From assembly GCA_963721815.1 (NCBI GenBank), contig CAVRLO010000024.1, positions 806,475 to 870,474 on the forward strand: a stretch of 64,000 nt of DNA, in the 5' to 3' direction. Shown one piece after another: positions 3,432-38,303 of the stretch. The notes beneath the pieces were generated by a model. The model saw only the letters and a program-made list of their open reading frames with translations, had not been told where the DNA came from and did no database searches. Source of the DNA: an uncultured Candidatus Rokubacteria bacterium. Lineage in GTDB: Bacteria; Methylomirabilota; Methylomirabilia; Rokubacteriales; CSP1-6. Position numbers and translations under genes: made by a program. Every line of letters begins with the position of its first letter. The first letter of the stretch is position 1.

Positions 3432-4310
3432 CGCGAGCGGGGTGAGACCGGAAAGTACTTATCGAGCCAGTTGCGCAGGAGCGTGACGACCAGCGTGTTG
3501 CTCTCCGACAGCACGAAATGGTCGACCCCAGCGACCAGATGGAGGTCGGTCGGCTGACCGGCGTGGCGGAAGAGGTCGATCGACTGCTCGGTCGGCGTCA
3601 CCGAGTCGTTCGCGGGATGGAGCAGCAGGAGCGGCCGCGGCGAGATCTTGCCGACCACGTCGTTGGCCCGGAAGGCGTACATGCTTTCGACGACCTCGAA
3701 CGGAAACTCCATGATCGACCCCGGCGCCACGTTGCCGCGCAGGGCGGGCGGGATCGGCACGATGTCGTAGCGCTCCACCATGATCGATTCGCCCGTCTGC
3801 TCTCGGCGCCGGCGGCCCTCGGCTAGCATCGCCGTGAAGCGCGCCCACGCCTCCGGCGACTCGTGCTGCTTGCGAAACTTCTTCTCGCCGTCGCCCCAGC
3901 CGCCGGCCGAGACGCACGCGGCGACCCGCTGATCGACGCCCGCGGTGTAGACGGCGACCGCGGCGCCGAAGCTCGCCCCCATTACCCCGATGCGATCCGC
4001 GTCGATCTCGGGCCGGGTCGCGAGAAAGGCGAGGGCGCTCTGAGTGTCCTCGACCTGCTCGAGACAGATCACGCGCCCGCGCGACGCCCTCGCTCTGGCC
4101 GCAGCCGCGCATGTCGAATCGGAGCGCCGCATAGCCGAGCCCCGCGAACAGCTTCGCGCTGGCGACGCTGCCGCCGCTGTCCTTACTGCTGCCGAACCCG
4201 TGCAGGATCAGGAAGGCGGGCCGCCGCTCGCGCGGGCCGCGGGCGTCGGGCACGTGCAGCACGCCCGCGAGCTTCAGACCGCCGGAGACGAATGTGACCC
4301 GCTCTTCCAT
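3428..4310 (-). CDS. alpha/beta hydrolase, one frame break in this sequence
   Basis: The N-terminus (ORF 3459..4310) reads MEERVTFVSGGLKLAGVLHVP...AFLILHGFGSSKDS...RFDMRGCGQSEG. It continues in ORF 3428..4132 with RVICLEQVEDTQSALAFL...IGVMGASFGAAVAVY (GxSxG elbow)...LLLLHPANDSVTP...GVDHF. The shift lies near 4075-4085. GGGAGG precedes the ATG. Confidence 0.75.
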
Positions 4311-4326
4311 GGGGTCCTCCCGGCTA

Positions 4327-4690
4327 TCAGTTCTTCTTGAGGCGCACGTCTTCGAGCGGCGCCGACCACGGATACGGGTTGATCATCATGAGCGCTGGAT
4401 TCTCCGCGCGCGGCCCGATTCCGCTGGGCCAGATGTACTCGAAGATCGGCGCGATCCGCGTGCGCTCGTTCATGAGCTGCTGGATCTGGTGCAGGAGCGC
4501 CTCGCGCTTCTTCCGGTCCGGCTCGCGGCCCTGCTGCTTGTAGAGCGCGTCGTGTCCGGATAGCCCCGTAGGCAAAGGCGCCTTCGTTCGGATTCGTAGA
4601 GGTCGGCGGGGAGGTCCCGGTAGAACTGGAGAAGCTCGAGGGCGCTGGGCCGCGGACGGAACCCCAGCCCACATCCTCGACAGCGCAGCA
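4327..4690 (-). pseudogene. C-terminal remnant (about 110-120 aa) of a family-5 (peptide/nickel type) ABC substrate-binding protein
   Basis: Only the C-terminal end is present: ...NEGAFAYG / LSGHDALYKQQGREPDRKKREALLHQIQQLMNERTRIAPIFEYIWPSGIGPRAENPALMMINPYPWSAPLEDVRLKKN*. It is read across 2-3 frames. The remaining roughly 400 aa expected for such proteins are missing, and the preceding gene ends at 4792. Confidence 0.55.
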
Positions 4691-4791
4691 CGCGCCCCGG
4701 GGAGATGTCACGCCGCGAAGGACCGAAGGCCGACGGCGGCTCCCTCCTCTTGGCCCCCTCACGCCAGAGAGCGGACAGGGAGCTTCCCAGC

Positions 4792-6310
4792 TCACGAGGC
4801 GGGCGGGCGTGTCCCGGTCACGAGTTTCGCTCGCCGCGCGCGCCACGAGCCCCGTACGAGGCGCACGAGGGTAGAGAGGTAGTCCGGGCCCACGCGAAGG
4901 ACGCGGAACGAGGAACGTCCCATGTCGATTGTCCGGTTGATCCAGGACACAGGCACTTCCTGGATGTCGTGACCGGCCAGCAACGGCTTGAGCCCCGTCT
5001 CGACATTCGCAGCGAAGTGATTCTCCTCGAGGTCGAGATTCTTGAGGATGTCGGCCCGGTAGAGCTTGAGATTGTTGGAGATGTCGCGGACGCGGCTGGG
5101 GAGGAGCAGGTTCACGAGCAGGTGGAAGACACGGTTACAGAGGATTTTGAAGAAGGGATAGTTGATGAGCATCGACTCGTGAGAGAACCGACTGCCGATG
5201 GCGCCCGCATGTCCTTGCGCCACGGCGTCGAAGAGGTCCCGGAACTCGGGCACGATCTGCACGAAATCGCTGTCCGTGGTGAGAATGTAACGGCCGGTGG
5301 CCGCGGCGTACCCATCCCGAAGCGCACGTCCCACGCCGTTGGGCGGCTTGCGATCGACCAGCTTCACGCGGGGCTCCCGCCGGGCCACCTCCCGCGTGAC
5401 GTCCGCCGTCCGATCCGTGCTGTTGTCGTTCACGATGATGATCTCGTGCAGGTACGGCCCGTACATACCCACCAGCGCGTCCACGAGAGGCTCCACGTTC
5501 ATCTCCTCGTTGTGACAGGGGGCCACTACGGAGACGGAGGCACGCAACGCCTCGTGCTCGGCCAGGTTGACGAGGGGCCGGGGTTTTCCTCCCGGCTTCC
5601 GCGCCCATATGTAGAGCGTGCCGCACAGCTCGCGGATGAGGGGGGCGTGCTCCAGCACGAACCCGAGGGTCCGCACGACGGGAAGGAGGAGCCGAGGCGT
5701 GCGGGGATGCACGATGTCGTAAGGGATGACGTCGATGTGCGTGAATCCCTGATGCGAGCTCATCTGCATGAGGCGGTACTTGCGCAGCCCGATCTGGCAG
5801 CGCGCCTGCCCCGCCCACCGTCCGAGAGGCGGAATGGCGTTCTTGAGGAAGACCTGGGGATTCCAGTAGTTGGCCTCGAAGAAGATCAGCTGGCCGCCAG
5901 GTTTCAACACTCGCCAGAGTGCGCGCAAGGTCTGCGGGTACTGGTCGTGGCAAAGGATGGCAGTTCCCACATGCATAGTCGAAGGCGTCGGCGGGAAGAT
6001 CCTCGGTGAGGTCCGTGACCCCGCGGTAGGTCACGTTCGGCAGATGCCTCCCGCTTGCCCTGAGGAGGAGATCCTCGTTGAACACCGCGGCCGTGATGGG
6101 ATTCTCGCCCCGCAGGACGGCTGTGAGGTGCTCGGTCCAGAGCCCGCTGCCGGCACCGAGTTCAACGATGCTCTCCCCGGGCAGCACGTGGAAGCCATGG
6201 CGCACGGTGACGGCACGCCATCGCAGCTTCATGGGCGACGTGTGTGGATAGCGGAGCCAGTATGCCTCACGACTCCGCTCCATCTCGCGCAGGTTGGTCT
6301 CAACTGACAT
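4792..6310 (-). CDS. bifunctional class I SAM methyltransferase / family-2 glycosyltransferase (DPM1-like), one frame break
   Basis: The N-terminus (frame of ORF 5135..6343) reads MSVETNLREM...VELGAGSGLWTEHL...PADAFDYA. It continues in ORF 4792..5976 with VGTAILCHDQYPQTLRALWRVLKPGGQLIFFE, then a GT2 domain: VSVVAPCHNEEMNVEPLV...IIIVNDNSTDRTADV...GVGRALRDGYAAATGRYILTTDSDF. A single extra base lies near 5968-5972. An alternative start exists at 6343. Confidence 0.75.
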
Positions 6311-6367
6311 CGTTCGGCCGAGCGCGCGCGAGGTCGGGCCCATAGACAGGGCCGGCGCCCCCGAGAC

Positions 6368-6505
6368 GGATCATGACGACGCCGCCGCGTGGACGTCGCG
6401 GGCCAGCTCGTCCAGGATCGATGACAGCGATCGGGTGATGCGCCAGCCCGGGTAATCTCGCCGGAAGCGATTGAGGTTGCTGATGTAGCAGATGTAGTCC
6501 CCCAT
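6368..6505 (-). CDS. possible 45-aa hypothetical protein (below ORF-track cutoff)
   Basis: Manual translation gives [45 protein letters not shown]. It has GC-rich third positions and lies directly upstream of the MT-GT2 gene on the same strand. There is no clear RBS and I recognise no family. Confidence 0.2.
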
Positions 6506-6635
6506 CCGGGGCTGCTCTTCGTATCGTCACGATAGCTTCTCTGCTCTAGTTCATCAAGAGATGAGCCGGACGGTCCCGCGGCTGCGGCGAACGAAGCCTG
6601 TCCGACGAATGACTCGGCCGGCTAGCCCGATTGGC

Positions 6636-7125
6636 ATGGACGACGAAAAGAGGCTGAGAGACGAGCTGGACCGCGGGATGTCGCTGCCCGCGTCCTGGTA
6701 TACGTACCCCGCCCTGGCGGCGCGGGAGGACGATCGCATCTTACGCCGGGGCTGGCAGTACGTGAGGCGCGCCGAGCAGGTGCCCGCGTGGGCGACTTCT
6801 TCACCGGGGTCGTCGCGCAGGTGCCCGATCACTATCCTTGATCCTTGGCCCCGGGCCAACCGAACCTGTCGCTCGATGTCTGGATCCCCGCGGGGCCGGA
6901 GCGCACGCGGGGGTTCTCGGAGCACTGGTTCGGGCGGACGTGCCGGAGGCGTCGCGACAGGAGATGATCGCGTTCAATCGCCAGGTGAGCGGGGAGTACG
7001 ATCGCCTCACCGATTCCGTCCAGCGCGGCCTCCGGGCCGGGCTGCCCGCCCGCGGACGCTTCCTGACCCGGAGCGAGCACCTGATCGTCCACTTCCAGCG
7101 GCTCGTGCTGGATGCCCTCGCATGA
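6636..7125 (+). pseudogene. remnant of a Rieske-type aromatic ring-hydroxylating oxygenase alpha subunit (N- and C-terminal ends only; Rieske domain missing)
   Basis: The N-terminus reads MDDEKRLRDELDRGMSLPASWYTYPALAAREDDRILRRGWQYVRRAEQVPA. After frame changes the C-terminal part follows: SLDVWIPAGPERTRGFSEHWF.../ DVPEASRQEMIAFNRQVSGEYDRLTDSVQRGLRAGLPARGRFLTRSEHLIVHFQRLVLDAL. No CxH...CxxH Rieske motif appears in any frame. The total is about 165 aa, against the 350-450 aa typical of the family. Confidence 0.6.
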
Positions 7126-7228
7126 GGGCCCGGGCCGCGTGGACGAGGTCGACGCGTCGTTGAAGAGCTGGGTCCAGATCGGCCCGATGCCGAGATACGT
7201 CTACGCCGGATACTCGCGTGCCGTCCGG

Positions 7229-9128
7229 CTACGGCGCGATCTGACGCCGGCGCAGCTCCTCCAGGATCTGCCCCGCGCACTCGTCCGGCGTCGCGTCCGC
7301 GGTGTGGACCACGATGTCCGGGTGCTCCGGCACTTCGTAGGGAGAGTCGATGCCAGTGAAGTTCTTGATCTTGCCCGCCCGGGCGCGGGCATAGAGGCCC
7401 TTGGGGTCGCGCCGCACGCACTCCTCGATCGGAGTGTCGACGAAGATCTCGATGAAGTCGCCCGGTTCCACCAGGTCGCGCACCACGCGGCGCTCGGCCC
7501 GGAAGGGTGAGATCAGCGAACACAGCACGATCACCCCGGCATCCGCGAAGAGCCTGGCCACTTCGCCCACGCGGCGGACGTTCTCCACCCGATCGGCCTC
7601 GGTGAAGCCGAGGTCGCGATTCAACCCGTGCCGCACGTTGTCGCCGTCGAGGATGTAGGTGTGCACGCCGCACGCATGTAGCTCGCGCTCGACGAGATTC
7701 GCGATCGTGCTCTTGCCCGAGCCGGACAGACCCGTGAACCACAGGATGACCGCCCGGTGCCCGTTGAGGGCGACCCGCGCCGCCTTGTCGATCGATAGGC
7801 GCTGCGGGTGCACGTTCGTCGCCCGGCGCAAGCCGAAAGAGATCATTCCCGCGCCTGCCGTCGCATTCGTGAAGCGGTCGATGAGGATGAACGCGCCGGT
7901 TGCCCGATTGTCGGTGTACGGATCGAAGGCGACCGGGCGGGCGGTGGCCAGGTTGCACAGGCCGATCTCATTGAGGGTGAGCGTGCGCGCGGCGACGTGC
8001 TCGAGGGAGTTGGGGTCGACCTTGTGCTTCAAACGGGTCACCCGGGCGGGCACGTAGCGCGTCCCGATCCGCAGGAGGTAGGAGCGCCCGGGCAGCATCG
8101 CCTCGTCGGTCATCCAGAGCACGTGCGCGGCGAACTGGTCCACGACCTCGGGGCGCGCGCTCGCATGGGCGAGCACGTCGCCGCGGGCCACGTCGATGTC
8201 CTCGCTGAGCTGGATCGTCACCGTATCTCCGGCCCGCGCCTCCGGGCGATCGCCGTCATAGGTGACGAGGCGCGCTACCGTCGATTCCACGCCGGACGAG
8301 GCGACGACCACGCGATCCCCGCGCCGCACGACACCGGACACCACCGAGCCGGAGAGGCCGCGGAAGTCGGGATCGGGCCGATTCACCCACTGGACCGGGA
8401 ACCGAAAGGGCTTCGTCTTCCAGGGCGTGATACACCTCCACGGACTCCAGGTACTCCAGCAGTGGCGGACCGTCGTACCATCGCGTGCGGTCGGAGCGGC
8501 TCGTCACGTTGTCGCCGTGGCGGGCGGAGATCGGAATGGCCGTGATCGAGTCGAAACCCAGGGATCCGGCGAAGGCGAGGTAGTCCCTGACGATGTGATC
8601 GAAGCGCGCGCCCGAGTACTCGACGAGGTCGATCTTGTTGATTGCCACGACGATGTGACGGATACCGAGCAGTGAGCAGATGTAACTGTGGCGGCGCGTC
8701 TGAGTGAGGACGCCCTTCCGGGCGTCGATCAGGATCACGGCGAGGTCGGAGGTGGACGCGCCGGTGGCCATGTTGCGCGTGTACTGTTCGTGCCCAGGAG
8801 TGTCGGCCACGATGAACGCACGCCGGGCGGTCGCGAAGAACCGATACGCCACATCGATCGTGATGGCCTGCTCCCGCTCGGCCTCGAGGCCGTCCACGAG
8901 GAGGGCGAGATCGATTTCATCTCCGGTGGTGCCGTACTTGCGGGAGTCGCGCTCCAGCGCGCTCAGCTGGTCCTCGGGGATGAGCCGGGCGTCGTACAGC
9001 AGCCGTCCGATGAGTGTGGACTTGCCGTCGTCGACCGAGCCACACGTGAGGAACTTGAGCAGGTCCTTCTCGCCCGCGGCTGGCGCCGGTGGCGGGGCGG
9101 GCGGGCGAGGCCCCGGCTCGGCGGTCAT
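7229..9128 (-). CDS. cysNC: bifunctional sulfate adenylyltransferase subunit 1 / adenylylsulfate kinase (CysN-CysC fusion, NodQ-like), one frame break
   Basis: The GTPase motifs are [17 protein letters not shown] and NKIDL (ORF 8256..9287 from M54). The frame then shifts near 8408-8411 at a GGG/CCC run into ORF 7229..8386 ([20 protein letters not shown]...). The APS-kinase P-loop is [15 protein letters not shown], followed by [22 protein letters not shown] overlap links it to cysD. Confidence 0.9.
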
Positions 9129-10054
9129 CAGAAATACCCCTCCCGCTTCTTGCGCTCCATCGAGGCTGGCTGGTCGGTGTCGATGAGCCGACCCGATCGC
9201 TCGGAGGTGCGCGTCGAGAGCATCTCCGCGACGATCTCGTCGAGAGTGGCGGCCGTGCTTTCGATGGCGGCCGACAGGGGATAGCAACCGAGGGATCGAA
9301 AGCGCACCACGCGCACCTGTTCCACTTCCCCCGGGAGCAGCGGTAGACGGTCGTCGTCGCGCACGATCAGTGCTCCGTCTCGGGTGACCACCGGTCGCGG
9401 GGCAGCGAAATACAGCGGCACGACCGGGATGTTCTCGGCGCGCGTGTACCGCCAGATGTCGAGCTCGGTCCAGTTCGACAGCGGAAACACCCGAATGCTC
9501 TCGCCCCGGTTGATCTTCGTGTTGTAGAGGTGCCAGAGCTCGGGGCGCTGATTGCGCGGGTCCCAGACGTGTCCGGCCGATCGGAAGGAGAAGATCCGCT
9601 CCTTGGCCCGGCTCTTCTCCTCATCGCGGCGAGCGCCGCCGAAGGCCGCGTCGAAGCCCCACTTGTCGAGCGCCTGCTTCAGGGCTTCCGTCTTCATGAC
9701 CTGGGTGTGAAGCTCTGAACCGGAGGTGATCGGGTTGATTCCTCGCGCGACGCCCTCCGGGTTCGTATGGACGAGGAGCTTCAGCCCGCAGCGCGATACA
9801 GTCGAATCGCGGTGGCGGATCATGTCGCGGAACTTCCAGCCCGTGTCCACGTGCAGCAGCGGGAACGGCGGCTTGGACGGGTAGAACGCCTTCAGGGCGA
9901 GATGGAGCATCACGCCCGAGTCCTTGCCGGTCGAGTAGAGCATCACCGGGTTGACAAATTCCGCCGCCACCTCGCGGATGATCGAGATCGATTCGGATTC
10001 GAGCCGCTTGAGATGCCTGGACAGTGGCGGGGATTGGGGCTCCGGCGTACTCAT
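9128..10054 (-). CDS. cysD: sulfate adenylyltransferase subunit 2
   Basis: Intact ORF. From M31 of ORF 9128..10144 it reads [56 protein letters not shown] (PAPS-reductase-like SxGKDS loop)...[13 protein letters not shown]...RIFSFRS...[11 protein letters not shown]...[16 protein letters not shown]...[11 protein letters not shown]. Confidence 0.92.
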
Positions 10055-10373
10055 AGTCCGATCAGGCCTCAGGTGGCAGGGGATGGAGGTGTACGTCCGC
10101 CGGCCCCGTCGTTCGACTCTCGCCCCGTCTGCTGGCGCGTCCACTGGTCATTTGTTCTTCCGCGGGCACGACTCCGTCCCGGCCGCTGATCGGCGTGGCC
10201 GGCCACGGTGCGAGCCGACGGCGCGCGTGACACAGGATCCGATCGTGCGGTAGAGACGGCGATCGTGTCAAGGAGGACATGGCGCGGCGTTCGCGTGTCG
10301 TCGAGAAGGGGAGTCCTGGTCGAACGGGCATTGAGGCCCGGGACGCGCGGCCGAGCTCGTGTGGCAGGACTGC

Positions 10374-11999
10374 TCAGGGGCGTCGCACCAGGATCCGGTA
10401 ATCGTCCGTGTCCCGGACTGGGACGAACTCAGAGCGGAGGAAATCGTCCAGCACGAACACGTGGCTGGACACCGCGCTGAGATTCGGCTCCTCGGGCAGC
10501 ACGCCCTTCCAGACCACGATCGTCCGAACATTGTTCCTCCGCAGCTCCGCCACGATGCGTTCCTGTACCGCTTGCGTGGTGGTCAGACCCGGAATGAAGT
10601 CGTGGAAGTACGTTCCGCTGGCGCGGCCGGACAGGAAGTAGAGGATCACCGCGTTGTCGTGCACGCGGTCATGACGCATCGAGGCGACCAGGATGCGCGG
10701 ATCCGAATCCTTCGCGTCGATGTCGGCCACGGCACGCGATAGCCCGGCCAGCTGCTCCGGGACGACAATGCCGGTTGCCCTCGCCAAGCCCAGGGGGGCG
10801 TACCCGGCGACCGCGCTCCGCTGTGCCACGGACATCCCGACGAGCGCCACGCCGATGAGCACGGAGAGGCAGGCGCTGAGCAACCGGGCCTCCCAAGAGC
10901 CCGCACGCCGCTCCAGCACGGATGCCAGGATGAGAGAGGTCGCGCAAACGCACAGGACGTGGAGTGGGTAGACGTGGTAGAAGTCGGACCTTCCCAGCGC
11001 GTACATCGACAACCCGAGCGCCAGCGTCAGCACGAAGAGCAGCACCCGGGCTCGGCCCTCCATCTCGAGCGTTGCCCGACGCACGAGCGGTAGGGCCAGG
11101 CTCAGCACCGCGCCGAGTCCCACAAAGGGCGTGAGGAGGACGCCCGCGCGCACTGCCTGCACGACCGCGGGAGGGCCAATGCTCTCCATCGCTCGCAGGG
11201 ACCAGTACAGCCGTCGCAGTTCGTACGAGTACGGGAGATCCCGGTAGGCGAGCGAGGTCGCCGGGAAGACCACCAGCGCTTCGAGCACGCGCCACACGCC
11301 ACCCGCCGCGAGGAGGCCGTAGACGGGTCCCACGACGAGGGCAATGCCCAGCGCCAGACACCCGAGCGACCGCGCCACTGCAGCCAGCCCGACCCATCTC
11401 TGTCGGCGGCCCGGTCTGGACACAGCGATCCCCACCTGGATGACAACGGCGGCGACCGCGCCATACGCGCCGACGTCCTGGCGGAACAGCGCGGCCAGGC
11501 CCACGAGTAAACCAGCGGCCAGGCACCGGAGGCAGCCTCGGGGGACAAGGCCTCGGGTGGGCGCGGAGGTCCCGGTGAGCACGGCGCCCGCGGCCAGGAC
11601 CAAGGAGAACGCGGGGTCGCACGCATGGAGCAGGTCACCCCGATAGAGAGGTACCAGCAGGGCGACTACGGGCATCAACGACCAGCGCACTGGGAGAGCT
11701 GCACTCCGGCAGAGCGCGAAAAGTGCCGCCGCAGCCACCGCGCCGAAGAAGAGGTTTCCCAGGCGCGCCACCAGGACTTGGGTGCCGAAGAGCCTGAACA
11801 GGAGCGCCGGCCAGTAGAACTGGGCGGGGCCGTAGTAGGTGAAGACGTCACGGTAGGGAAGGTCTCCGGCCAGGATGCGCTGGGCGCCGTAGAGACGTAG
11901 GCCCTCGTCGTAGACATTGAGACCGGTCCCCGCGATCGGTAGCCAGTAGACGACCGCCAGCGCGAACACGCCGAGATAACCGATCGCGCTACGACTCAC
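10374..11999 (-). CDS. polytopic membrane protein, GT-C-fold glycosyltransferase-like (ArnT/PMT-type)
   Basis: Intact 541-aa ORF with a GTG start. It has more than 10 hydrophobic segments. Its first loop, LNVYDEGLRLYGAQRILAGDLPYRDVFTYYGPAQFY, resembles the acidic first loop of GT-C enzymes. A soluble C-terminal domain of about 120 aa follows. The family call is by resemblance only. Confidence 0.5.
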   Translation of the reverse strand: MSRSAIGYLGVFALAVVYWLPIAGTGLNVYDEGLRLYGAQRILAGDLPYRDVFTYYGPAQFYWPALLFRLFGTQVLVARLGNLFFGAVAAAALFALCRSAALPVRWSLMPVVALLVPLYRGDLLHACDPAFSLVLAAGAVLTGTSAPTRGLVPRGCLRCLAAGLLVGLAALFRQDVGAYGAVAAVVIQVGIAVSRPGRRQRWVGLAAVARSLGCLALGIALVVGPVYGLLAAGGVWRVLEALVVFPATSLAYRDLPYSYELRRLYWSLRAMESIGPPAVVQAVRAGVLLTPFVGLGAVLSLALPLVRRATLEMEGRARVLLFVLTLALGLSMYALGRSDFYHVYPLHVLCVCATSLILASVLERRAGSWEARLLSACLSVLIGVALVGMSVAQRSAVAGYAPLGLARATGIVVPEQLAGLSRAVADIDAKDSDPRILVASMRHDRVHDNAVILYFLSGRASGTYFHDFIPGLTTTQAVQERIVAELRRNNVRTIVVWKGVLPEEPNLSAVSSHVFVLDDFLRSEFVPVRDTDDYRILVRRP

Positions 12000-12169
12000 G
12001 TCGGTGATACCCTGCCGGGAGATCCAGCACGTGCACCACTCGCGCTAGATCGAAGCGACAACGTTACACCGGCGTCGCCGGTCGACCGGCCACCAACAGG
12101 ACACGAGAAAAGGGCACGGTGCAGGTACCGCCCGGGTCGGGGGCCGATCGGGACCGAAGGCCAGCCGCG

Positions 12170-12823
12170 ATGGAGTCCAAGCTCGTCGTCGTCATCGGGG
12201 GCGGGCTGTCCGGGCTGGCCGCCAGTTACGACCTGGCGCGAGCCGGTCACCATGTCGTCCTGCTCGAGGCGCTGCGAACTTCGGCGGCCTGGCCCGCTCC
12301 TTTCGCCTCGAGGGCCACCCGATCGAGCGCTTCTACCACTTCATCTGCCGTTCCGATCGCGATCTCCTGACTTTCGTCGACGAGCTCGGCCTCGGCGGGA
12401 AGCTCCATCGAGCAGACCAGCCTGAACCAGAACCTCCAGCGGGCCGGCCTCAACGTGGTCTATGGCCCTTCACCTGTCGACCACCGAGCCGCGCTACCGC
12501 GCCGCCGACCAGGACCTGTTCGCCGAGTACACCGCCATGCTGAAGCTCATGAATCCGGACTTCTCGGAGAGCTGGGTCAAGGAGTATCGCGTCTTTCGCA
12601 CGCCACATGCCCAGCCGGTCTTCACCACCAACTTCGTCGACCTCATGCCCGCGCACCGGACTCCGATCCGGGGTCTCTTCGTCACGGACCCACGCAGTTC
12701 TACCCGGAAGACCGCACGATCAGCCGGGCGATCCGCGAGGGCCGGACAGTGGCGGCCATGATCATGGCCGATTCGACGCCTCCCACTGGCGACGCTTTCC
12801 TGAGCCCAGGCGCGGCCTCGTGA
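12170..12823 (+). pseudogene. remnant of an FAD/NAD(P)-binding amine-oxidase/phytoene-desaturase-like oxidoreductase with an internal deletion
   Basis: The N-terminus MESKLVVVIGGGLSGLAASYDLARAGHHVVLLEA is a dinucleotide-binding fold. A shifted frame continues GGLARSFRLEGHPIERFYHFICRSDRDLLTFVDELGLGGKL. It then jumps directly to a C-terminal part: ALHLSTTEPRYRAADQDLFAEYTAMLKLMNPDFSESWVKEYRVFRTPHAQPVFTTNFVDLMPAHRTPIRGLFVTD / FYPEDRTISRAIREGRTVAAMIMA. About 215 aa remain, against the 430-450 expected. Confidence 0.55.
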
Positions 12824-13738
12824 CCCTGGTGGCGGCGACCTGCGTCGTGTGTGGGGGCGGCACCGTTGACCCCGTATACCACGGCAGCATCTCCCCGGCC
12901 GAGCCGCGCGACCCGGCGATCTACTTCTCGTCGTCCCGGCGGGTGGCCGGCTATCTCCCGATCGTGCGGTGCGCCCGATGCGGGCTCATGATGACGAGCC
13001 CTCGGGACGACGACGCGACCCTCGGCCGCATCTATGCGGACCTGGCGGATCGCACCTACGAGCAGGAAGACGAAGCTCGAAGCCGAAACGCGGGCGACCG
13101 CCTCGCGCTGGTGGCGAGCTACCGGCGGCCCCGGGGAACCTGCTCGATGTGGGCTGCGCAACCGGGCTCTTCGTATGCGCCGCCCAGAACGAAGGATGGG
13201 AGGCCACGGGCATCGACGCCTCGGCCTTGGCGGTGGCGCGGGGTGCGCAGCGGTGCCCCCAGGCCCGCTTCCGTGCGGGCCTGCTCGCGGAGATCGACTT
13301 CCCGGTCGGGAGCTTCGCGTGGTCACGCTGTCGGATGTCCTGGAGCACGTGCCGAGGCCGGTCGAGATTCTGCAAAAAATCCGGAGCTGGCTCGCCGTCG
13401 ACGGCTGGCTCTTCCTGAGCCTGCCGAACGCCGACAGCCGCATGGCCCGGCTGATGGGCAAGCGCTGGGTCCTGCTCCTGCGCGAGCACCTGTGGTACTT
13501 CTCGCCGGTCACGATCACCGCCCTGCTCTCGCGGACCGGCTTCACGCTCGCCGACGTGCGTCCGAAGCTCGACCGATTCTCCGTCGCGAACATCATGGAC
13601 CGTCTCGGCCAGTATCCGGGAGCGGCAGGGATGCTGGCCGGGCGCCTCTCGGGGGTCGGGGTCCTTCGACGTCTCATCGTACGCTTCCCCATCGGGGAGA
13701 TGTACGTGGTAGCTCGAGCGCCCGAAAGCCGATCGTAG
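12820..13738 (+). CDS. class I SAM-dependent methyltransferase with an N-terminal Cys-rich (zinc-ribbon-like) segment, two frame breaks
   Basis: A GTG at 12820 overlaps the preceding stop (GTGA). The protein reads CVVCGG...VRCARCGLMMTSP / LLDVGCATGLFVCAAQNEGWEATGIDAS (SAM motif I) / VVTLSDVLEHVPRPVEILQKIRSWLAVDGWLFLSLPN...MYVVARAP*. The shifts lie near 13125 and 13320. Confidence 0.7.
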
Positions 13739-13783
13739 ACCAGGCCAGCGCCGTCATGGACTGGCGCCTCATCCGACCGCAAC

Positions 13784-14893
13784 CTAGTGGCGCCGAGGCT
13801 CGTAGCCAAACTCTTGCGCCACCTCCTTCGTTTCCTCCGCAATGACCTCCGCGTCTTCCGCCGACAATTTCGGCCGATAGTAGTTCGGGGCCTTGATACC
13901 TTGGCCAAGGTTCGCGAGGAGTTGGTCGTTCTTGGGGAGAGCGCAGTGGGCGAGCACGTCGGCGGTTACCGCGGTCGGATCGGCACACAAATCCTCGTAG
14001 CGCACGACGCGGACAGCCTTCCGCATCGCTTCGTCAGAGGCCAGCAGATCGTGAACATGGCCATAGATTGACGCCCAGTAGCGCGCCCAACCGCGCACCT
14101 CGTCGCCGCCCTGCCACAATGCTTCGACGGAACGCCACGCGTCATTGTCTCCGGTGTTGATCGCGCGCCGGTCAAGTCCGAACTCAAAGTGACCCACCCG
14201 CCGCAAGTGTGCCCGAGCCCTGGGCTCGTCCGCTTCGCCGCGACAGAACAGCTCATGTTGCTTCATGAGGGAGCCGACATGCGCGTGGGGGTGGCGGATT
14301 GCGATGACGAACCGCGCGTCAGGGAAGAGTTTCTGGAGATAGGCCAGGCGGGTGACGTTGTAGTTTGCCTTGGCCACATATCGCGTACCGCCTCTGATGA
14401 ACAGGATCTTGCGGATGTGATCCGTGTAGAACGTCTCGAATGCGGGGTCCTCGACACGGCGGTCCAAGCGATCGACCGGCGGATGCGTCGGACTGAGCGA
14501 GGGGAAAGCCCTCCAGAGCGGCTCTTCCAGCGCTTCCGGACTTTCAGGCGTCACGTAGATGCCGTCCCTGTGAGCACGCTCTTTGGGGACTTGCGGCTTC
14601 GTGCGCGCGTGGTCCAGGAACCAGTTCCAGAGGATGGGCGTGAAGAGGCCGGGATAGTCGCGATATCGGTGCGAGATGACGCCGTCGATGCTGGCCAGCA
14701 CTTCCAGCAGCGTCGTCGTGCCCGCCCGGGCCAGGCCCGTGATGTACACAGGTCGGTCGATGGTGATGCCTTTGAGCTTTCTCCCGAGAAGCTGTGTCTC
14801 GACGCCGCCAAGGGCAAGCCAGAGGGGCGTGAAGCGTTCCACGAACCCGCCTATGAAATGAGTGACAGCGTCGATTTCGAAGATCTTGTCCAC
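13784..14893 (-). CDS. PAPS-dependent sulfotransferase family protein
   Basis: Intact ORF. The 5'-PSB-like loop is YITGLARAGTTTLLEVL and the 3'-PB-like segment is VIAIRHPHAHVGSLMKQH. I place the start at GTG 14893, which is preceded by GGAGG 8 nt upstream and lies after the stop of the upstream gene. The longest ORF extends to TTG 14965. Confidence 0.8.
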   Translation of the reverse strand: MDKIFEIDAVTHFIGGFVERFTPLWLALGGVETQLLGRKLKGITIDRPVYITGLARAGTTTLLEVLASIDGVISHRYRDYPGLFTPILWNWFLDHARTKPQVPKERAHRDGIYVTPESPEALEEPLWRAFPSLSPTHPPVDRLDRRVEDPAFETFYTDHIRKILFIRGGTRYVAKANYNVTRLAYLQKLFPDARFVIAIRHPHAHVGSLMKQHELFCRGEADEPRARAHLRRVGHFEFGLDRRAINTGDNDAWRSVEALWQGGDEVRGWARYWASIYGHVHDLLASDEAMRKAVRVVRYEDLCADPTAVTADVLAHCALPKNDQLLANLGQGIKAPNYYRPKLSAEDAEVIAEETKEVAQEFGYEPRRH

Positions 14894-14921
14894 TACCGTC
14901 GCCTCCGTATCGTACGCTCGC

Positions 14922-15698
14922 CTAACGAATATTGAAGGCACACTTGAGCGCAAGCGAGACGACAAAGGCCGCCACGATGAACAAAGACTCTGGGGACCGA
15001 GCCCAGGAGGGTCCGAGGGCCAGGAACTCCCTGGGCTTCAAATCAAAGGTGATCGACTCGACCCGAGTGGCGTGGGGGAGGTAGCCCGCTGGATTGCCGA
15101 GTAGCCAATTCCACCAGGCGGACTTCTGAATACGTGTGACCGGGTGGTCGCCGGTGAGCCGAACAAGGTTCCTTCCCTCAGTGTCAAGAAGGAGAAGCGG
15201 CCGTCCGGGTGCCGGCCACGCGATCGTCAGCCGCGAGGGGTCCTCAGATCGAAGGCCAGCCGGGACGCTCTGGACGCGAGTCCCTTCCGGCGTGACGGCG
15301 ACGGTCACCGGATCGCCGCCTCGCGGGAGCTCGTAGCCGTAACGGTCCGACACCCAGGTCAGGATCGCGAGGAAAGGCACGGCGGCAACGACCGCCGGCA
15401 AGAGCGTCATCAAGAGCTGCGCCCCCGACCACCGAATCAGCTCACCCGCGGCGGCCAAGCTCTCCGGGAGATCTGTCCGGCTGGTGTCCAGCAGGCGGTG
15501 ACGGCTTTCGCGGGACCGTCGCGCAATCTCGTGGAGCTTGCGTTGAGGCGAGACGAGCCAGTAGAGGGCCATCGAGCTAGCTCCGGCAACGCCCCCCCAC
15601 AACGACACCTGCGTGGTCAGCGAGGCCCATCCGACGCATGATGCGTTTAGCCAGTCGAAGACGGACGCCGGCGAGTTGAGAAGACCGTGTTCATTCAT
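14922..15698 (-). CDS. hypothetical membrane protein (3 predicted TM segments plus a soluble domain)
   Basis: From M72 of ORF 14922..15911 it reads MNEHGLLNSPASVFDWL.... Hydrophobic segments are VSLWGGVAGASSMALYWLV, LLMTLLPAVVAAVPFLAILTWV and LFIVAAFVVSLALKCAF. Codon third positions are coding-like. I recognise no family. Confidence 0.5.
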   Translation of the reverse strand: MNEHGLLNSPASVFDWLNASCVGWASLTTQVSLWGGVAGASSMALYWLVSPQRKLHEIARRSRESRHRLLDTSRTDLPESLAAAGELIRWSGAQLLMTLLPAVVAAVPFLAILTWVSDRYGYELPRGGDPVTVAVTPEGTRVQSVPAGLRSEDPSRLTIAWPAPGRPLLLLDTEGRNLVRLTGDHPVTRIQKSAWWNWLLGNPAGYLPHATRVESITFDLKPREFLALGPSWARSPESLFIVAAFVVSLALKCAFNIR

Positions 15699-15772
15699 CG
15701 ATACGCTAGGGTGCCATGCCGATCGCCTCGAGAGCTGCGCCGAGACCACCCTCCGCTGCCGGCGCGGTGGCG

Positions 15773-16027
15773 TCAGTCGCGTCCAGTGGTGGCGGGCCCG
15801 CGGGAGGGCTTGCGACGATCGCGCATCCTCGCGAGCAGGATCTTGAACGGCAGGTACAGGAGGACGCCGAGCGAGAGCAGGATCGCCCCGATGAGCCCGA
15901 GGAGGGCCCATAGGAAGCTCAAGCCCGCACCCGGACCGACATACGCCGACGCCGGGGCGACCCAGACGTGGAATGTAACGACGAACACCGTGAGAAGAGC
16001 CAGTGCGGCAACCCGCGTCATTGTCAT
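15773..16027 (-). CDS. small membrane protein (signal/anchor, YVGPGAGL motif, second TM, basic tail)
   Basis: The 84-aa ORF reads MTMTRVAALALLTVFVVTFHVWVAPASAYVGPGAGLSFLWALLGLIGAILLSLGVLLYLPFKILLARMRDRRKP.... It sits in the same transcriptional direction between the ASST-like gene and the membrane protein gene. Confidence 0.5.
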   Translation of the reverse strand: MTMTRVAALALLTVFVVTFHVWVAPASAYVGPGAGLSFLWALLGLIGAILLSLGVLLYLPFKILLARMRDRRKPSRGPATTGRD

Positions 16028-16058
16028 CCTCCCAATTGTATCCGCGGTATCCGCGTCC

Positions 16059-17393
16059 TCACCGTGGCACGGACGGCTCGAGGAAGGTCACCCCATCCCT
16101 CGGGATCCGCCCGGCACTGTACACGGCCGGAACCAAGGTGCGACCCTCATGCGTGATCACATCCGGGATGCGGTATTCCCAGACGACTCGCTTGTCTCGA
16201 TTCACCTCGATGATGCGGCCGCCCTCGGTTTCCGTGATCAGAATGTTGCCATTGGAGAGCTGCTGGACCGAGGAAATGTACGGGCTTCTCAGAGGCTCGG
16301 CCGATCGACCGCCGTAGCTCCAGACGATGGCGCTGTTCGTCGGCTTGACCTCGAGAACGCGTGACATGTACTGGCCCACCAACCCGCCCCAGTTGTCGAA
16401 GAGAAGCAGGTTACCGTTCGGAAGAGGGAGCGGGAAATGGGACATGATCCATGGCCCCGCGCTCGCCCACACGATGCGTTCGGCGTCGAAGTCCACGATC
16501 ACGACGGCGAGGAGATTTCGGATGTTGACAAGCACTTGTCCCGGCTTGGTCCATTCGTGATGCGCTGCGAATGCAGACGTGATGAACTTGATCGAGTTGG
16601 TGTGGAAGGGGTCCCACGCGGGTACCGCCGTCAGGCTATCGCGTGTGAACAACCGAGTCCGTTCGTCGAGTAGCCCGGCTTTGAGGAGCAGAGCGAGGAG
16701 AGATAGCTTCTTTTCGAGCACACCGTCATGGGAGAGCTTCACGAGATAGTCGTTCAGAATCCTGTCGGGAGTCCCTGGAACCGACAAGGACGGCGGAGTC
16801 TTCTCGAATCCCTGGGTCAGGGCGGCGATGCCGAAGTCGCGGGACACGTCGAAGTCGTGATGAAAGGCCTCGCCGATCTTCCAGATGACGTGCGAGGACT
16901 TGTTGACTTTGGCAAGGCCGCACCCATATGGAGTGAGACCATAGCAGGTAAACGCGATCAGTAAGCTCCCATCGTCGAAGACATGGATCCGCTGCAAATC
17001 GGCAGTGTGATCGGGTCGACGGACGGGGAGGTGGTCGGCGTCCGGCCACACCTTGGTGAAGGGAACGAACCACTCATGCACGACCTTGCCGTCCATGTCG
17101 AGGAGACGCGCATGGGGGCTGGCACCACGCGCGTAGTAGGTGTACCCGGGAGCATAGGCGGCGGGGTCGGAGCGAATGAGGCCGCCTCGCTCGACCGCGG
17201 GGACGGCCCAGCTGAACTTCTGGAACGGCTCTTGGGCGGCGAGGACGGCCTTGGCGGCCGTCATTCCACGAATGACATGTGGCGCGACCACCTGCACTCG
17301 GTAGGTATCGATCACACCGGCAATGAACGCCAGGACGGCAACGGCCAAGATACAGAGGGCAAGGTACCCCCAACGCACAGGACCTCCAGGCAC
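16059..17393 (-). CDS. arylsulfotransferase (ASST)-family beta-propeller protein with an N-terminal membrane anchor
   Basis: Intact 444-aa ORF. The N-terminal TM segment is WGYLALCILAVAVLAFIAGVI. Further segments are FHHDFDV, WDPFHTNSI, NGNLLLFDNWGG and QQLSNGNILITETEGGRIIEVNRDKRVVWEY. These resemble the PAPS-independent aryl-sulfate sulfotransferase family. The call is from motif memory and no HMM was run. Confidence 0.6.
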   Translation of the reverse strand: MPGGPVRWGYLALCILAVAVLAFIAGVIDTYRVQVVAPHVIRGMTAAKAVLAAQEPFQKFSWAVPAVERGGLIRSDPAAYAPGYTYYARGASPHARLLDMDGKVVHEWFVPFTKVWPDADHLPVRRPDHTADLQRIHVFDDGSLLIAFTCYGLTPYGCGLAKVNKSSHVIWKIGEAFHHDFDVSRDFGIAALTQGFEKTPPSLSVPGTPDRILNDYLVKLSHDGVLEKKLSLLALLLKAGLLDERTRLFTRDSLTAVPAWDPFHTNSIKFITSAFAAHHEWTKPGQVLVNIRNLLAVVIVDFDAERIVWASAGPWIMSHFPLPLPNGNLLLFDNWGGLVGQYMSRVLEVKPTNSAIVWSYGGRSAEPLRSPYISSVQQLSNGNILITETEGGRIIEVNRDKRVVWEYRIPDVITHEGRTLVPAVYSAGRIPRDGVTFLEPSVPR

Positions 17394-17776: not shown

Positions 17777-20138
17777 ATGGCCAATCCGGTGACCGTCGAG
17801 AAATTCGGAGTCGGGCAGTCCGTGCGTCGCATCGAAGACCCACGCTTGCTCCAGGGGTTCGGGCGCTACTCGGACGACGTGAACCTGCCCCAGCAGGCCT
17901 ACGCCGTGGTGGTCCGCTCTCCCCACGCGCACGCGGCCATCCGCTCGATCGACTCCTCCGCGGCCCGCAACGCGAGCGGCGTGCTCGCCGTGCTCACCGG
18001 CGCCGACCTGGCGTCCGACCGGCTCGGCGACTTGCCGACGGACAAGAGCCGCAAGCGGCGCGACGGGTCGGCGGCGTTCGCGACGCCTCGGCCGGCGCTG
18101 GTCCGGGATCGCGTCCGCCACGTGGGCGACCCGGTGGCGTTCGTCGTCGCCCAGACTATGGAGCAGGCGGTCGATGCGGCCGAGCGGGTCGCGATCGACT
18201 ACGAGCCGCTGCCGGCCGTCGCCGCGACGGCCGACGCGATCCGCCCGGGCGCGCCGGCGGTGTGGGCGGAGGTGCCGGACAACACCGCGTTCGTGTGGGA
18301 AGCGGGTAAGAAAGACGAGACGGCGCGCGCCATCGCCGGTGCCGCGCACGTCACCAAGCTGGATTTCGTCGTGACGCGCGTGGCCGCCGCGCCGATGGAG
18401 CCGCGCGGCGCGGTTGGCGAGTGGGATCGGCGCACCGGCCGTTACACCCTTCACACGGGCATCCAGGCGCCGCACGGCCTTCGTACCCTGCTCGCGGATC
18501 AGGTGTTCAAGGTGCCGCACAGCCATCTGCGGGTCGTCACCGGCGAAGTCGGCGGCAGCTTCGGCATGAAGAGCGGCGTCTATCCCGAGGTCGTGCTGGT
18601 GCTGTGGGCGGCCAAGCGACTGGGGCGGCCGGTCAAGTGGACCTCGGATCGCCGTGAAGGCTTCGTCACCGACGAGCACGGGCGCGACAACGTCTCCACG
18701 GCCGAGCTGGCGCTCGACGCCGACGGAAAGTTCCTGGCCTTGCGCGTGGCCATCAACCTGAACGTCGGCGCCTATCTCACGCCGCGCAGCGCCGGGCCGG
18801 GCACCAACAACGTCGGCGGCATCGCCGGGATCTACACGACGCCCGCGATCCACGTGCAGACGACCGGTGTGTTCTCGAATACGACGCCGACGGGGCCCTA
18901 TCGCGGCGCCGGCCGCCCCGAGGCGACGTACGCGATCGAGCGCGTCATCGACGTGGCGGCCATGGAGCTCAAGATCGACCCGATCGAGCTACGCCGTCGC
19001 AATCTGATCCCGGCCTCCGCGATGCCGTTCAAGACGGGGCTCGTCTTCACCTACGACTGCGGCGAGTTCGGGCGCGGGATGGACATGGCGTTGAGTCTGG
19101 CCGACCGCGCAGGCTTCGAGAAGCGGCGCGCCGAGGCCCGGCAGCGGGGCAAGCTGCGCGGCCTGGGCATCGCCAATCCGATCGAGGTCGCCGGCGGGCC
19201 GTACACCGCGATGAATCCGGATACCGCCGAGCTCAGGGTCAACGCCGACGGCTCGGTGTCTCTGTTCACCGGCTCGACGTCGATGGGGCAGGGCAACGAA
19301 ACGGCCTTCGCCCAGATCGTCAGCGAGAAGCTCGGCGTGCCGCCCGAGCGCATCCAGGTGTTCTGGGGCGACAGCGACTTGCTCGGCGCGGGCCGTGGCA
19401 ACGGCGGCTCGGGCGCGCTCACGGTGGGCGGCTCGGCCGTGACGCGGGCTACCGAGAAGATCATCGAGCGGGGACGCAAGATCGCAGCGCGGTTGCTCGA
19501 GGCCGCTCCGGAAGACGTGGTCCACCAGGATGGAAAGTTCACGGTGAAGGGCACGGACAAGGGCGTGACGTTCGCCAACGTCGCCCGCGCCGCGTACGTG
19601 CCGCGCCAGCTTCCCCAGGGGATGGAGCCTGGCTTCAGCGAAGAGGCCTCGTTCACGCCGTCGGCGGTGACGTTCCCCAACGGATCGCAGATCTGCGAGG
19701 TCGAGATCGATCAGGAGACCGGTGCGGTGCAAGGTCGTGCGCCACACCGTCGTCGATGACGTCGGGCGCATGGTGAACCCGATGCTCGTGAAGGGACAGA
19801 TCCACGGCGGCGTGGTCCAGGGGCTCGGCCAAGGGCTCTACGAAGAGCTCACGTACGAGCCGACGACCGGTCAGCTGCTCGCCGGCTCCTTCATGGACTA
19901 CGCGATGCCGCGCGCCGACGACATGCCCGCCTTCGACGTCGATTCCCACGAGGTGCCGACCGAGGTCAATCCGCTCGGCGCCAAGGGCGTCGGTGAAGCC
20001 GGAACGGTGGGTGCGCTGCCGGCGCTCCTGAACGCGGTCAACGATGCGCTGGCACCGCTCGGCGTCCGGCACCTCGACATGCCGGTGACGCCCGAGCGCG
20101 TCTGGCGCGCGATCCAGGACGGGAAAGCTCGCCGCTGA
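17777..20138 (+). CDS. xanthine dehydrogenase/CO dehydrogenase-family molybdopterin-binding large subunit (CoxL-like, AYRGAGR type), one frame break
   Basis: ORF 17777..19759 reads GQSVRRIEDPRLLQGFGRYSDD...GGSFGMK...TPTGPYRGAGRPEATYAIERVID...EVEIDQETGAV. It continues in ORF 19722..20138 with VVRHTVVDDVGRMVNPMLVKGQIHGGVVQGLGQGLYEE...NPLGAKGVGEAG. The shift lies near 19715-19730. Confidence 0.85.
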
Positions 20139-30582: not shown

Positions 30583-30588
30583 CCTAGA
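30583..30588. repeat. target-site duplication CCTAGA (left copy)
   Basis: This copy is identical to 31617-31622 and directly abuts the IS inverted repeat. It fits the NCTAGN target known for IS481. Confidence 0.85.
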
Positions 30589-31528: not shown

Positions 31529-31616
31529 CCAGGCCTCCTGTCCCGGGTGAGTAATGACTTGGCAGCCACTACTTTCCCCAGGTCGGCCTGGGTGAACAAC
31601 CTCTTGCTTCGTCACA
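30589..31616 (-). mobile_element. IS481-family insertion sequence, 1028 bp, apparently intact
   Basis: The imperfect terminal inverted repeats are TGTGAACGAGCATGAGGTTGTTCCCCC (30589-30615) and TGTGACGAAGCAAGAGGTTGTTCACCC (reverse complement of 31590-31616), matching at 22 of 27 positions. They are flanked by direct CCTAGA copies. A single DDE transposase ORF fills the element. Confidence 0.9.
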
Positions 31617-31622
31617 CCTAGA
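31617..31622. repeat. target-site duplication CCTAGA (right copy)
   Basis: This copy is identical to 30583-30588 and directly abuts the other inverted repeat. Confidence 0.85.
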
Positions 31623-38294: not shown

Positions 38295-38303
38295 GCTAGC
38301 GGC

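Follow-up and report, generated by a model that had tools for sequence, protein, structure and literature searches.

We analyzed a 64-kb window (i.e., the whole stretch of 64,000 nucleotides, 68% G+C) from an uncultured Candidatus Rokubacteria bacterium, focusing on the region from 4.8 to 17.4 kb. This region encodes the enzymes CysD and CysN-CysC that synthesize 3′-phosphoadenosine 5′-phosphosulfate (PAPS), a PAPS-dependent sulfotransferase (ST), a β-propeller protein resembling arylsulfate sulfotransferases (ASSTs), and several glycosyltransferase-like and methyltransferase (MTase) genes. Comparison with related loci indicates, with high confidence, that the region is a lineage-specific side-by-side placement of four separately inherited modules and not one pathway. 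Module A (13784–17393) is a deeply conserved operon of four genes, hereafter the cassette, encoding the ASST-like protein, a small membrane peptide, a three-span membrane protein (the mid protein), and the ST. Module C (7229–10054) is an ordinary translationally coupled cysD-cysNC operon, module B (10374–13738) consists of a GT-C-fold protein together with two decayed genes, and module D is an MTase fused to a family 2 glycosyltransferase (GT2). With low to moderate confidence, we propose that module A would function as a sulfation relay with two steps, one on each side of the inner membrane. Taken jointly, the four-module account and the module A relay form our best explanation of the region, to which we give a slightly better than even chance.

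The four modules were separated on the basis of gene co-occurrence in ST-, cysD-, and GT-C-centered loci; real and spurious open reading frames (ORFs) were told apart by third-position GC and by profile searches (Pfam and NCBIfam). The ST-centered set consisted of 86 loci, 80 of them from species-representative genomes (the best 80 genome matches), spanning Alpha- and Gammaproteobacteria, Planctomycetota, Binataceae, and Desulfobacteraceae. These loci were examined both by tblastn with the window proteins and by unbiased clustering of all ORFs. The ASST-like gene was detected in 72 of the 86 loci by tblastn and in 83 by clustering, directly upstream of the ST gene and on the same strand, and the gene for the mid protein adjoined that for the ST, again on the same strand, in 75 (tblastn) or 79 (clustering) loci. 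The small peptide, with its short and diverged sequence, was matched by tblastn in 39/86. Linkage to the remaining window genes was not conserved: tblastn located CysD and the GT-C protein in none of the 86 loci, the MTase at 13 kb in one, and the MTase-GT2 fusion in two. Clustering gave the same picture, in that the only recurrent families were the ST (86 loci), the ASST-like protein (83), and the mid protein (79), and every other gene family was limited to 13 loci or fewer. Dongia genomes and metagenome contigs show the ST as the last gene of a tight four-gene unit that also encodes, in order, the ASST-like protein, a protein of ∼85 to 100 residues, and one of ∼240 residues. A gene for a protein of ∼170 to 200 residues downstream of the ST in Dongia was considered as a further member and rejected because it does not recur in the clustering. 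The flanks of the cassette differ from locus to locus (e.g., rpoBC at one locus, a large GDH gene at the next).

The cysD-centered set comprised the 80 closest metagenome relatives of the window CysD (66–85% identity), with neighbors scored within 10 kb. The cysN gene was adjacent to cysD in 47/47 loci with enough flank, and CysC was fused in 35/45. None of the 80 loci contained ST, ASST-like, mid protein, GT-C, or 13-kb MTase genes, and just two weak GT2-like matches (28–34% identity) were obtained; the surrounding genes were unrelated, variable housekeeping genes. Since cysD-cysN(C) stands alone in these relatives, the location of CysN-CysC next to the ST is no sign of a dedicated set, as the original prediction for this window had proposed; not one of the 86 ST loci or the 80 cysD loci had this linkage. 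Juxtaposition of the modules was found in this lineage only, i.e., in the window and in siblings that came from two or more other samples. Two siblings were used for comparison: an independent 13.7-kb Joint Genome Institute (JGI) contig (sample 3300067032), which has a 99% identical GT-C protein and the same order of GT-C, cysD, cysNC, MTase-GT2, hydrolase, and Ldh_2 genes as the window, and a second strain (locus L174) that is 98.2% identical to the window and gap-free over 2,072 nucleotides covering the mid protein and the ST. The genes of the region are as follows.

16059..17393, minus strand: ASST-like β-propeller, module A gene 1 (439–444 residues depending on start codon; Arylsulfotran_2, 4.5e-17)
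15773..16027, minus strand: small membrane peptide, module A gene 2 (82–84 residues; no family model)
14922..15698, minus strand: mid protein with three transmembrane segments, module A gene 3 (258 residues; unknown family)
13784..14893, minus strand: PAPS-dependent ST, module A gene 4 (369 residues; Sulfotransfer_3, 7.6e-19)
12800..13738, plus strand: S-adenosylmethionine (SAM) MTase pseudogene, module B (Methyltransf_23, 1.4e-15 on the C-terminal piece)
12179..12772, plus strand: remnant of an FAD-dependent oxidoreductase of the amine-oxidase/DAO type, module B (tblastn with an intact relative)
10374..11999, minus strand: GT-C-fold polytopic glycosyltransferase-like protein, module B (541 residues; AlphaFold2 [AF2] and Foldseek)
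9128..10054, minus strand: cysD, module C (308 residues; NF009214, 4.5e-153)
7229..9128, minus strand: cysN-cysC fusion, module C (GTP_EFTU, 1.5e-41; GTP-eEF1A_C, 7.7e-31; APS_kinase, 4.6e-69)
4792..6343, minus strand: MTase-GT2 fusion, module D (Glycos_transf_2, 4.3e-24)

Profile or structure searches located every gene of the original prediction at or near the coordinates assigned to it. The CysD, CysN-CysC, ST, ASST-like, MTase, and GT2 assignments were each backed by a profile match, that of the GT-C-like protein by Foldseek despite the lack of a Pfam or NCBIfam match, and that of the oxidoreductase remnant by tblastn with an intact 439-residue relative. The presence within 10 kb of an ST, a second sulfotransferase of the ASST type, and a complete pair of genes for synthesis of adenosine 5′-phosphosulfate (APS) and PAPS was likewise confirmed. 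A promoter and terminator scan of the window was uninformative (no promoters, and eight terminator-like sites versus 4.4 ± 2.5 expected). The cassette is separated by ∼13 kb from an IS481-family transposase gene (30584–31801, minus strand; rve, LZ_Tnp_IS481, and HTH domains).

The ST scored 69 bits against PF13469 (Sulfotransfer_3; cutoff of 27). One database sequence was 100% identical, and more than 2,000 homologs had ∼50 to 58% identity. Its family profile matched TPST1/2 (1e-7), 2zq5, CurM-ST, and StaL through both PAPS-binding motifs: GLARAGTT and RHPHAHVGS (the latter of the form (V/I)R(D/H)P...S) aligned with GVPRSGTT and VRDGRASVHS of TPST1, and residues R56, G58, T60, R200, P202, and S208 were invariant in 28 homologs. 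The protein thus combines the family profile with both the 5′-phosphosulfate-binding loop and the 3′-phosphate-binding motif. No transmembrane segment or signal sequence was predicted, and a GGAGG sequence precedes the GTG start codon. From these sequence features, the ST is predicted to be a cytoplasmic PAPS-dependent sulfotransferase.

The ASST-like protein scored 62.8 bits against PF14269 (cutoff of 27) and 21.5 bits against PF05935 (Arylsulfotrans, 1.3e-4), under the cutoff of 24.2 for that family; its relatives have precomputed PF05935 matches with E ≤ 1e-5. A single transmembrane segment (residues 10–28) was identified, and the propeller is predicted to be periplasmic because this N-terminal anchor is preceded by Arg. 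Invariant residues included H178-H179-D180, D261-x-x-H264-x-N266, R292, H319, D333-N334, and R345. When the PDB was searched with the single sequence, no match was obtained, and the family profile was needed to reach 9kf6 and 3elq. The closest solved structure to the family is 9kf6/9kf4, a 472-residue entry titled "Sulfotransferase", which the profile matched at 1e-7 through the invariant motifs; HHD, DxxHxN, R, QHD, FDN, and R are common to the family and 9kf6. No paper on 9kf6/9kf4 was found in the searchable literature. The alignment with 3elq, an Escherichia coli ASST, contained F-D-N and S-R motifs in common; the nucleophile of that enzyme is His436, which forms the sulfo-histidine.

Neither the small peptide nor the mid protein matched any Pfam or NCBIfam model. 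The gene for the small peptide has a GGGAGG Shine-Dalgarno sequence before its ATG, and the product has two hydrophobic segments. Its layout is a variable, signal-peptide-like N-terminus, A-x-A, Y-V-G-P-G-A-G-L, one transmembrane helix, and an Arg/Lys-rich tail. In an alignment drawn from 60 loci (56 sequences scored), the core motif was A-x-A followed by Y-[VI]-G-P-G-A-G; Tyr preceded [VILM]GPGAG in 56/56 sequences, with Ala at −1 in 56/56 and at −3 in 53/56. The invariant Tyr is predicted to become the N-terminus of the mature peptide. Its interpretation as a PEP-CTERM-like sorting signal was considered and had no tool support. The mid protein was modeled confidently by AF2 (predicted local distance difference test, pLDDT, 84.7; predicted template-modeling score, pTM, 0.79) as a first transmembrane segment, a basic cytoplasmic helical hairpin, a second transmembrane segment, a periplasmic β-sandwich of ∼100 residues, and a third transmembrane segment. 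An invariant WWNxLLGNPAGYLP motif lies just C-terminal of the β-sandwich. A fold search of the PDB returned nothing significant (best E of 0.1 and TM-scores ≤ 0.23), and a YidC/EMC3-like insertase fold, which was also considered, lacked tool support. The family is large (1,478 clusters at 50% identity with E ≤ 1e-3, of which 337 have E ≤ 1e-30). A few relatives (among them 967-residue P0166 and 542-residue P0227) carry the domain as the C-terminal part of a fusion to a type I phosphodiesterase/nucleotide pyrophosphatase (PF01663, alkaline-phosphatase superfamily) with a signal-peptide-like N-terminus. The location of the mid domain behind a secreted-type enzyme of this superfamily fits a periplasmic N-terminus (N-out); neither the 86 loci nor the window contained the phosphodiesterase domain.

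The relay is proposed because of an analogy with caprazamycin biosynthesis and the predicted topology of the cassette proteins. In the caprazamycin system, Cpz8, a PAPS-dependent ST, sulfates pyrones produced by Cpz6, and Cpz4, an ASST, passes the sulfate on (PMC4257720). The same article credits the two-step sulfation of caprazamycin/liposidomycin to Tang et al. 2013 and identifies Cpz6 as a type III polyketide synthase (PKS); no other pairing of a PAPS-dependent ST with an ASST is known to have been described. By analogy, the cytoplasmic ST of the cassette would use PAPS, supplied in the window by cysDNC 3.7 kb away and in Pseudomonadaceae by an APS kinase fused into the operon, to sulfate a phenolic or otherwise transferable carrier. 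The small peptide and the mid protein would present this carrier or pass it across the inner membrane. The periplasmic ASST-like enzyme would then, by means of a sulfo-histidine at the H319 equivalent, hand the sulfuryl group to an extracytoplasmic acceptor, in a compartment where there is no PAPS. The two enzymes are placed on opposite sides of the membrane because the ST lacks a transmembrane segment and signal, whereas the ASST-like protein has an N-terminal anchor. Either the carrier or the acceptor might be the invariant Tyr with which the mature small peptide is predicted to begin. A broader and tentative idea, which we consider rather doubtful as a whole, is that diderms use the cassette as a new trans-envelope sulfuryl relay, in which a membrane quinol or the small-peptide Tyr might be the carrier from which the ASST-like enzyme sulfates acceptors in the envelope or outside the cell.

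Several observations weigh against our interpretation. The alignment of the ASST-like Q-H-D with Q435-H436 of E. coli ASST 3elq is weak (E 0.46), the topology of the cassette is derived from prediction alone, and a protein Tyr that is used once would be a wasteful carrier. No carrier-synthesis gene equivalent to that for Cpz6 recurs near the cassette in the clustering of the 86 loci, and no paper, biochemical or genetic, on the cassette or its members was found in the searchable literature. The cassette is also not uniform: two alphaproteobacterial metagenome-assembled genomes (L015 and L017) and Salinicola salarius (L075) have the small peptide, mid protein, and ST genes with no adjacent ASST-like gene, and in planctomycete loci (L030, L033, and L061) the ASST-like gene is directly upstream of the ST gene and the mid protein was undetected by tblastn. 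Finally, sibling strains share the adjacency of cysDNC and the cassette, so local coupling, or even a dedicated role, could apply in this lineage. In one further locus (L014), the ASST-like gene is located ∼5 kb upstream.

CysD scored above the equivalog cutoffs for NF009214 (509 bits versus 413) and TIGR02039 (502 versus 397), and the ATG of cysN-cysC overlaps the cysD stop codon (TGATG). All CysN-CysC domains are present, divided between two frames (positions 21–244 of NF004035 in one and 238–630 in the other). The original prediction had treated nearby cysH and cysI as a sign of plain assimilation; the ORFs that were scanned in the 64-kb window included neither these genes nor one for a sulfate transporter. 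An independent case of PAPS supply beside the ST was provided by four Pseudomonadaceae (Pseudomonas sp. PIC25, P. indica, S. azotifigens, and P. lopnurensis; loci L044, L045, L064, and L068, ∼11.1–12.9 kb), in which a gene for a ∼500-residue fusion of a degenerate CysN and an APS kinase is directly downstream of that for the ST. The truncated CysN portion (profile positions 107–205 and 322 onward) has lost the N-terminal third of the GTPase, the APS kinase is complete, and no cysD is near. In functional terms, the tie between the ST and PAPS supply is real, and sulfation fed by a nearby PAPS supply is plausible.

The 541-residue polytopic protein of module B has ∼12 transmembrane segments and a C-terminal soluble domain, and its AF2 model is confident (pLDDT 89.3, pTM 0.91). 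With this model, Foldseek returned ArnT (5f15) as the top match (E 2e-7, TM-score 0.59), with a probability of 1.00 to ArnT, PglB, AglB, AftA, DPY19, Pmt4, and AftD. No Pfam or NCBIfam family matched directly; distant homologs carry PF13231. The D31-E32-G33 sequence is conserved in the first loop, after the first transmembrane segment. Judged from this model, the protein has a GT-C fold. It was absent from all 80 cysD loci as well as the 86 ST loci, and its homologs recur in a triad with a divergent FAD oxidoreductase and a Methyltransf_23 MTase (loci L087/L088, L171, and L172/L173), with no cys or ST genes near. The triad appears to be a separate, uncharacterized envelope-glycan system. Neighbors of the triad loci include GT87-family GT-C genes, a prepilin-peptidase-like gene, and genes for large unannotated proteins.

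In the window, this triad is decaying. When searched with the intact 439-residue oxidoreductase of L087, positions 12179–12408 corresponded to residues 3 to 79 and positions 12410–12772 to residues 314 to 435, so that the remnant occupies three frames and ∼234 codons have been deleted. The MTase at 13 kb, which has a Zn-ribbon-like N-terminus and is convergent with the ST, changes frame twice. It is 63% and 48% identical to the MTase encoded downstream of the oxidoreductase in L087/L088, and its position relative to that gene is the same in L171–L173. The original prediction had listed it as a SAM methyltransferase; sibling L174 lacks window positions 13412–13776 and 12967–13317, and because most of the gene is deleted there it counts, like the FAD oxidoreductase gene, as a true pseudogene of this lineage. 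Two JGI contigs of one sample (13,665 and 5,930 bp) both end in or beside the decayed MTase (∼12870–13030), which fits strain heterogeneity at this site breaking short-read assembly. As for module D, the MTase-GT2 protein of the sibling contig is intact (516 residues) with Ubie_methyltran/Methyltransf and Glycos_transf_2 domains. The best NCBIfam match of the window fusion was NF041391 (dolichyl-phosphate hexose transferase), at 66 bits versus a cutoff of 375, a score so far under the cutoff that only a generic GT2 domain is established and neither a polyprenyl-phosphate sugar synthase nor the earlier "DPM1-like" label is borne out.

Several genes of the window are split between reading frames. 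At least six genes in the 64 kb, and probably nine or more, are affected: those for a hydrolase (3428–4310), MTase-GT2 (4792–6343, break near 5976), cysNC (7229–9128), the 13-kb MTase (∼12800–13738), a CoxL-like protein (∼19735, within 17777–20138), and an ABC transporter (38295–40098, i.e., 38.3–40.1 kb), with probable further breaks in 719–2494, 42636–43163, and 51650–52060. Of the genes in the original prediction, cysNC, MTase-GT2, and the 13-kb MTase are thus frame-broken in this assembly; the ST has no indels relative to L174 over the 2,072 nucleotides. Lengths of three broken genes in the window and in the sibling JGI contig were compared.

cysNC: window 1900 nucleotides; sibling contig 1899 nucleotides, intact, 632 residues
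MTase-GT2: window 1552 nucleotides; sibling contig 1551 nucleotides, intact, 516 residues
Hydrolase: window 883 nucleotides; sibling contig 882 nucleotides, intact, 293 residues

These three breaks are most likely assembly indels, because each broken gene equals the intact ortholog of the 99%-identical contig plus one nucleotide; the unbroken cysD, GT-C, and Ldh_2 genes have the same length in both. The pattern looks like the homopolymer-type indel error of long-read assembly, and a European Nucleotide Archive contig (L001) likewise has rpoB and rpoC fragmented into many ORFs. Separately, the window lacks ∼1,353 nucleotides between cysNC and MTase-GT2 (6344–7228), where the sibling has an opposite-strand ORF of 213 residues, and ∼638 nucleotides between MTase-GT2 and the hydrolase gene (4311–4791), where the sibling encodes a 174-residue methyltransferase; these are strain-level structural differences despite the 99% protein identity. 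One could suppose instead that the breaks are real, i.e., that this strain carries cysNC and MTase-GT2 only as pseudogenes and that decay affects the entire locus, as the true pseudogenes for the neighboring oxidoreductase and MTase and the two missing segments might suggest. We find this improbable: beyond the single extra base in each gene, the cysNC break (near 8400, junction YHALEDE/PFRFPVQW) adjoins CCC/TTT runs, similar breaks affect unrelated genes across the window (hydrolase, CoxL-like, and ABC transporter), and the cassette is free of indels over 2 kb versus L174.

According to the original prediction, the entire region from 4.8 to 17.4 kb is one pathway in which a dedicated PAPS supply feeds the synthesis of a sulfated, methylated envelope glycan or glycolipid. 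All of the needed enzyme types do lie within 12.6 kb, their adjacency is repeated in the sibling strains from at least two other samples, and Pseudomonadaceae recruit PAPS-supply genes next to the same ST family. Nevertheless, we regard a single glycoconjugate pathway as quite unlikely. Comparison of the ST and ASST-like neighborhoods upheld the pairing of these two genes but not the linkage to cys, GT-C, MTase, and GT2 genes: CysD and GT-C occurred in 0/86 ST loci, MTases and GT2 in 0–2/86, and the cysD loci shared only the two weak GT2-like matches. The glycan-building and methylation parts of the supposed locus fare no better, in that the MTase and oxidoreductase genes belong to the GT-C module and are pseudogenes (the MTase mostly deleted in a sibling), the genes have mixed orientations, and the GT2 protein is far under the cutoff for polyprenyl-phosphate sugar synthases.

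Within the four-module account, the cassette itself might have other functions. It might produce a Tyr-sulfated, membrane-anchored peptide, with the small protein as substrate of a TPST-like ST, as for RaxST and RaxX, and with the ASST-like and mid proteins assisting in maturation, recognition, or recycling. The invariance of the Tyr at the predicted mature N-terminus (56/56), the tight linkage of the genes, and the rank of tyrosylprotein sulfotransferases as top matches of the ST profile among solved structures all point in this direction. This possibility is nonetheless unlikely in our judgment: the TPST match is generic because TPSTs and the ST share one broad sulfotransferase superfamily, export is predicted to leave the Tyr on the periplasmic side, away from the cytoplasmic ST, and the near-constant presence of a catalytically equipped ASST-like enzyme would go unexplained. 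Alternatively, the cassette might detoxify or scavenge exogenous phenols, with the ASST-like enzyme sulfating or desulfating them and the ST regenerating or consuming the donor. Characterized aryl sulfotransferases are periplasmic and move sulfate between small phenols, their natural roles being unknown (PMC13426309), and the cassette has no conserved biosynthetic neighbors. Such a function would, however, leave the invariant small peptide and the three-span protein with no role, and classical ASST exchange needs no PAPS-consuming cytoplasmic partner; we consider it very unlikely.

As far as the searchable literature shows, the four-gene cassette is undescribed. Its hosts number well over 80 species, among them culturable members of Pseudomonas, Stutzerimonas, Thalassospira, Inquilinus, Salinicola, and Marinobacter. 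Many hosts are halophilic, marine, or desert isolates (Litchfieldella, Salinicola, Marinobacter, Nitrococcus, Arhodomonas, Salinisphaera, Thiohalorhabdus, Thalassospira, Dongia deserti, and Virgifigura deserti), and these habitats may hint at a link with sulfate-rich environments. According to a 2026 review, what bacterial aryl sulfotransferases do physiologically and which substrates they use in nature is still poorly understood (PMC13426309). Because the cassette ties an ASST-type enzyme to a PAPS-dependent ST, two membrane proteins, and culturable hosts, the question is now directly testable. If the relay is real, it would be a route for extracytoplasmic sulfation in bacteria, explaining sulfation where there is no PAPS, and would provide the first general physiological role for the ASST superfamily. 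Two cautions also emerge: the close grouping of genes in one window pointed to a sulfated glycoconjugate locus for which comparative genomics gave no backing, and single-base assembly errors can look like pseudogenes.

The modules can be compared with several known systems. NodP/NodQ with NodH in rhizobia and CysDNC with Stf0 in mycobacteria likewise place CysD and CysN-CysC near a PAPS-dependent ST; in the present case the linkage is not conserved (0/86 and 0/80), and the ST belongs to a different family (NoeE match with E 0.0056, 15 bits versus a cutoff of 500). The ArnC/ArnT and GtrB/GtrC pairs resemble the window in that ArnT is the best structural match of its GT-C protein and a GT2 enzyme is encoded 4 kb away, but this GT2 is fused to an MTase, non-adjacent, not a conserved partner of the GT-C protein, and far under the synthase cutoffs, and the conserved partners of the GT-C family are instead an FAD oxidoreductase and a methyltransferase. 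In Xanthomonas, the RaxST/RaxX system with RaxP/RaxQ comprises a Tyr-sulfated peptide, a TPST-like enzyme, PAPS-synthesis genes, and a peptidase-containing ABC exporter. The window shares with it a TPST-like enzyme that depends on PAPS, genes for PAPS synthesis, and a small peptide with a conserved Tyr; unlike Rax, the cassette includes an ASST-like enzyme but no peptidase-containing exporter, and its peptide is predicted to be membrane-anchored. AssT of E. coli CFT073 (3elq), which is accompanied by DsbL/DsbI, belongs to the same β-propeller superfamily and is extracytoplasmic, as predicted for the cassette protein; Q-H aligns with Q435-H436, and F-D-N and S-R are common to both. The similarity is marginal (E 0.46), the cassette protein is membrane-anchored whereas AssT is soluble, and the cassette has a PAPS-dependent ST in place of a Dsb partner.

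The closest parallel is the caprazamycin type (PMC4257720). Both systems co-encode a PAPS-dependent ST and an ASST-type enzyme (in 72–83 of the 86 loci for the cassette), and in both, although only by proposal for the cassette, PAPS charges an intermediate sulfate ester that the ASST then takes as donor. The cassette ASST-like protein belongs to PF14269. Unlike the Cpz genes, the cassette has no carrier-synthesis PKS or acceptor-biosynthesis genes, its enzymes are predicted to be separated by the inner membrane and linked through two conserved membrane proteins, and it is widespread in diderms outside of antibiotic clusters.

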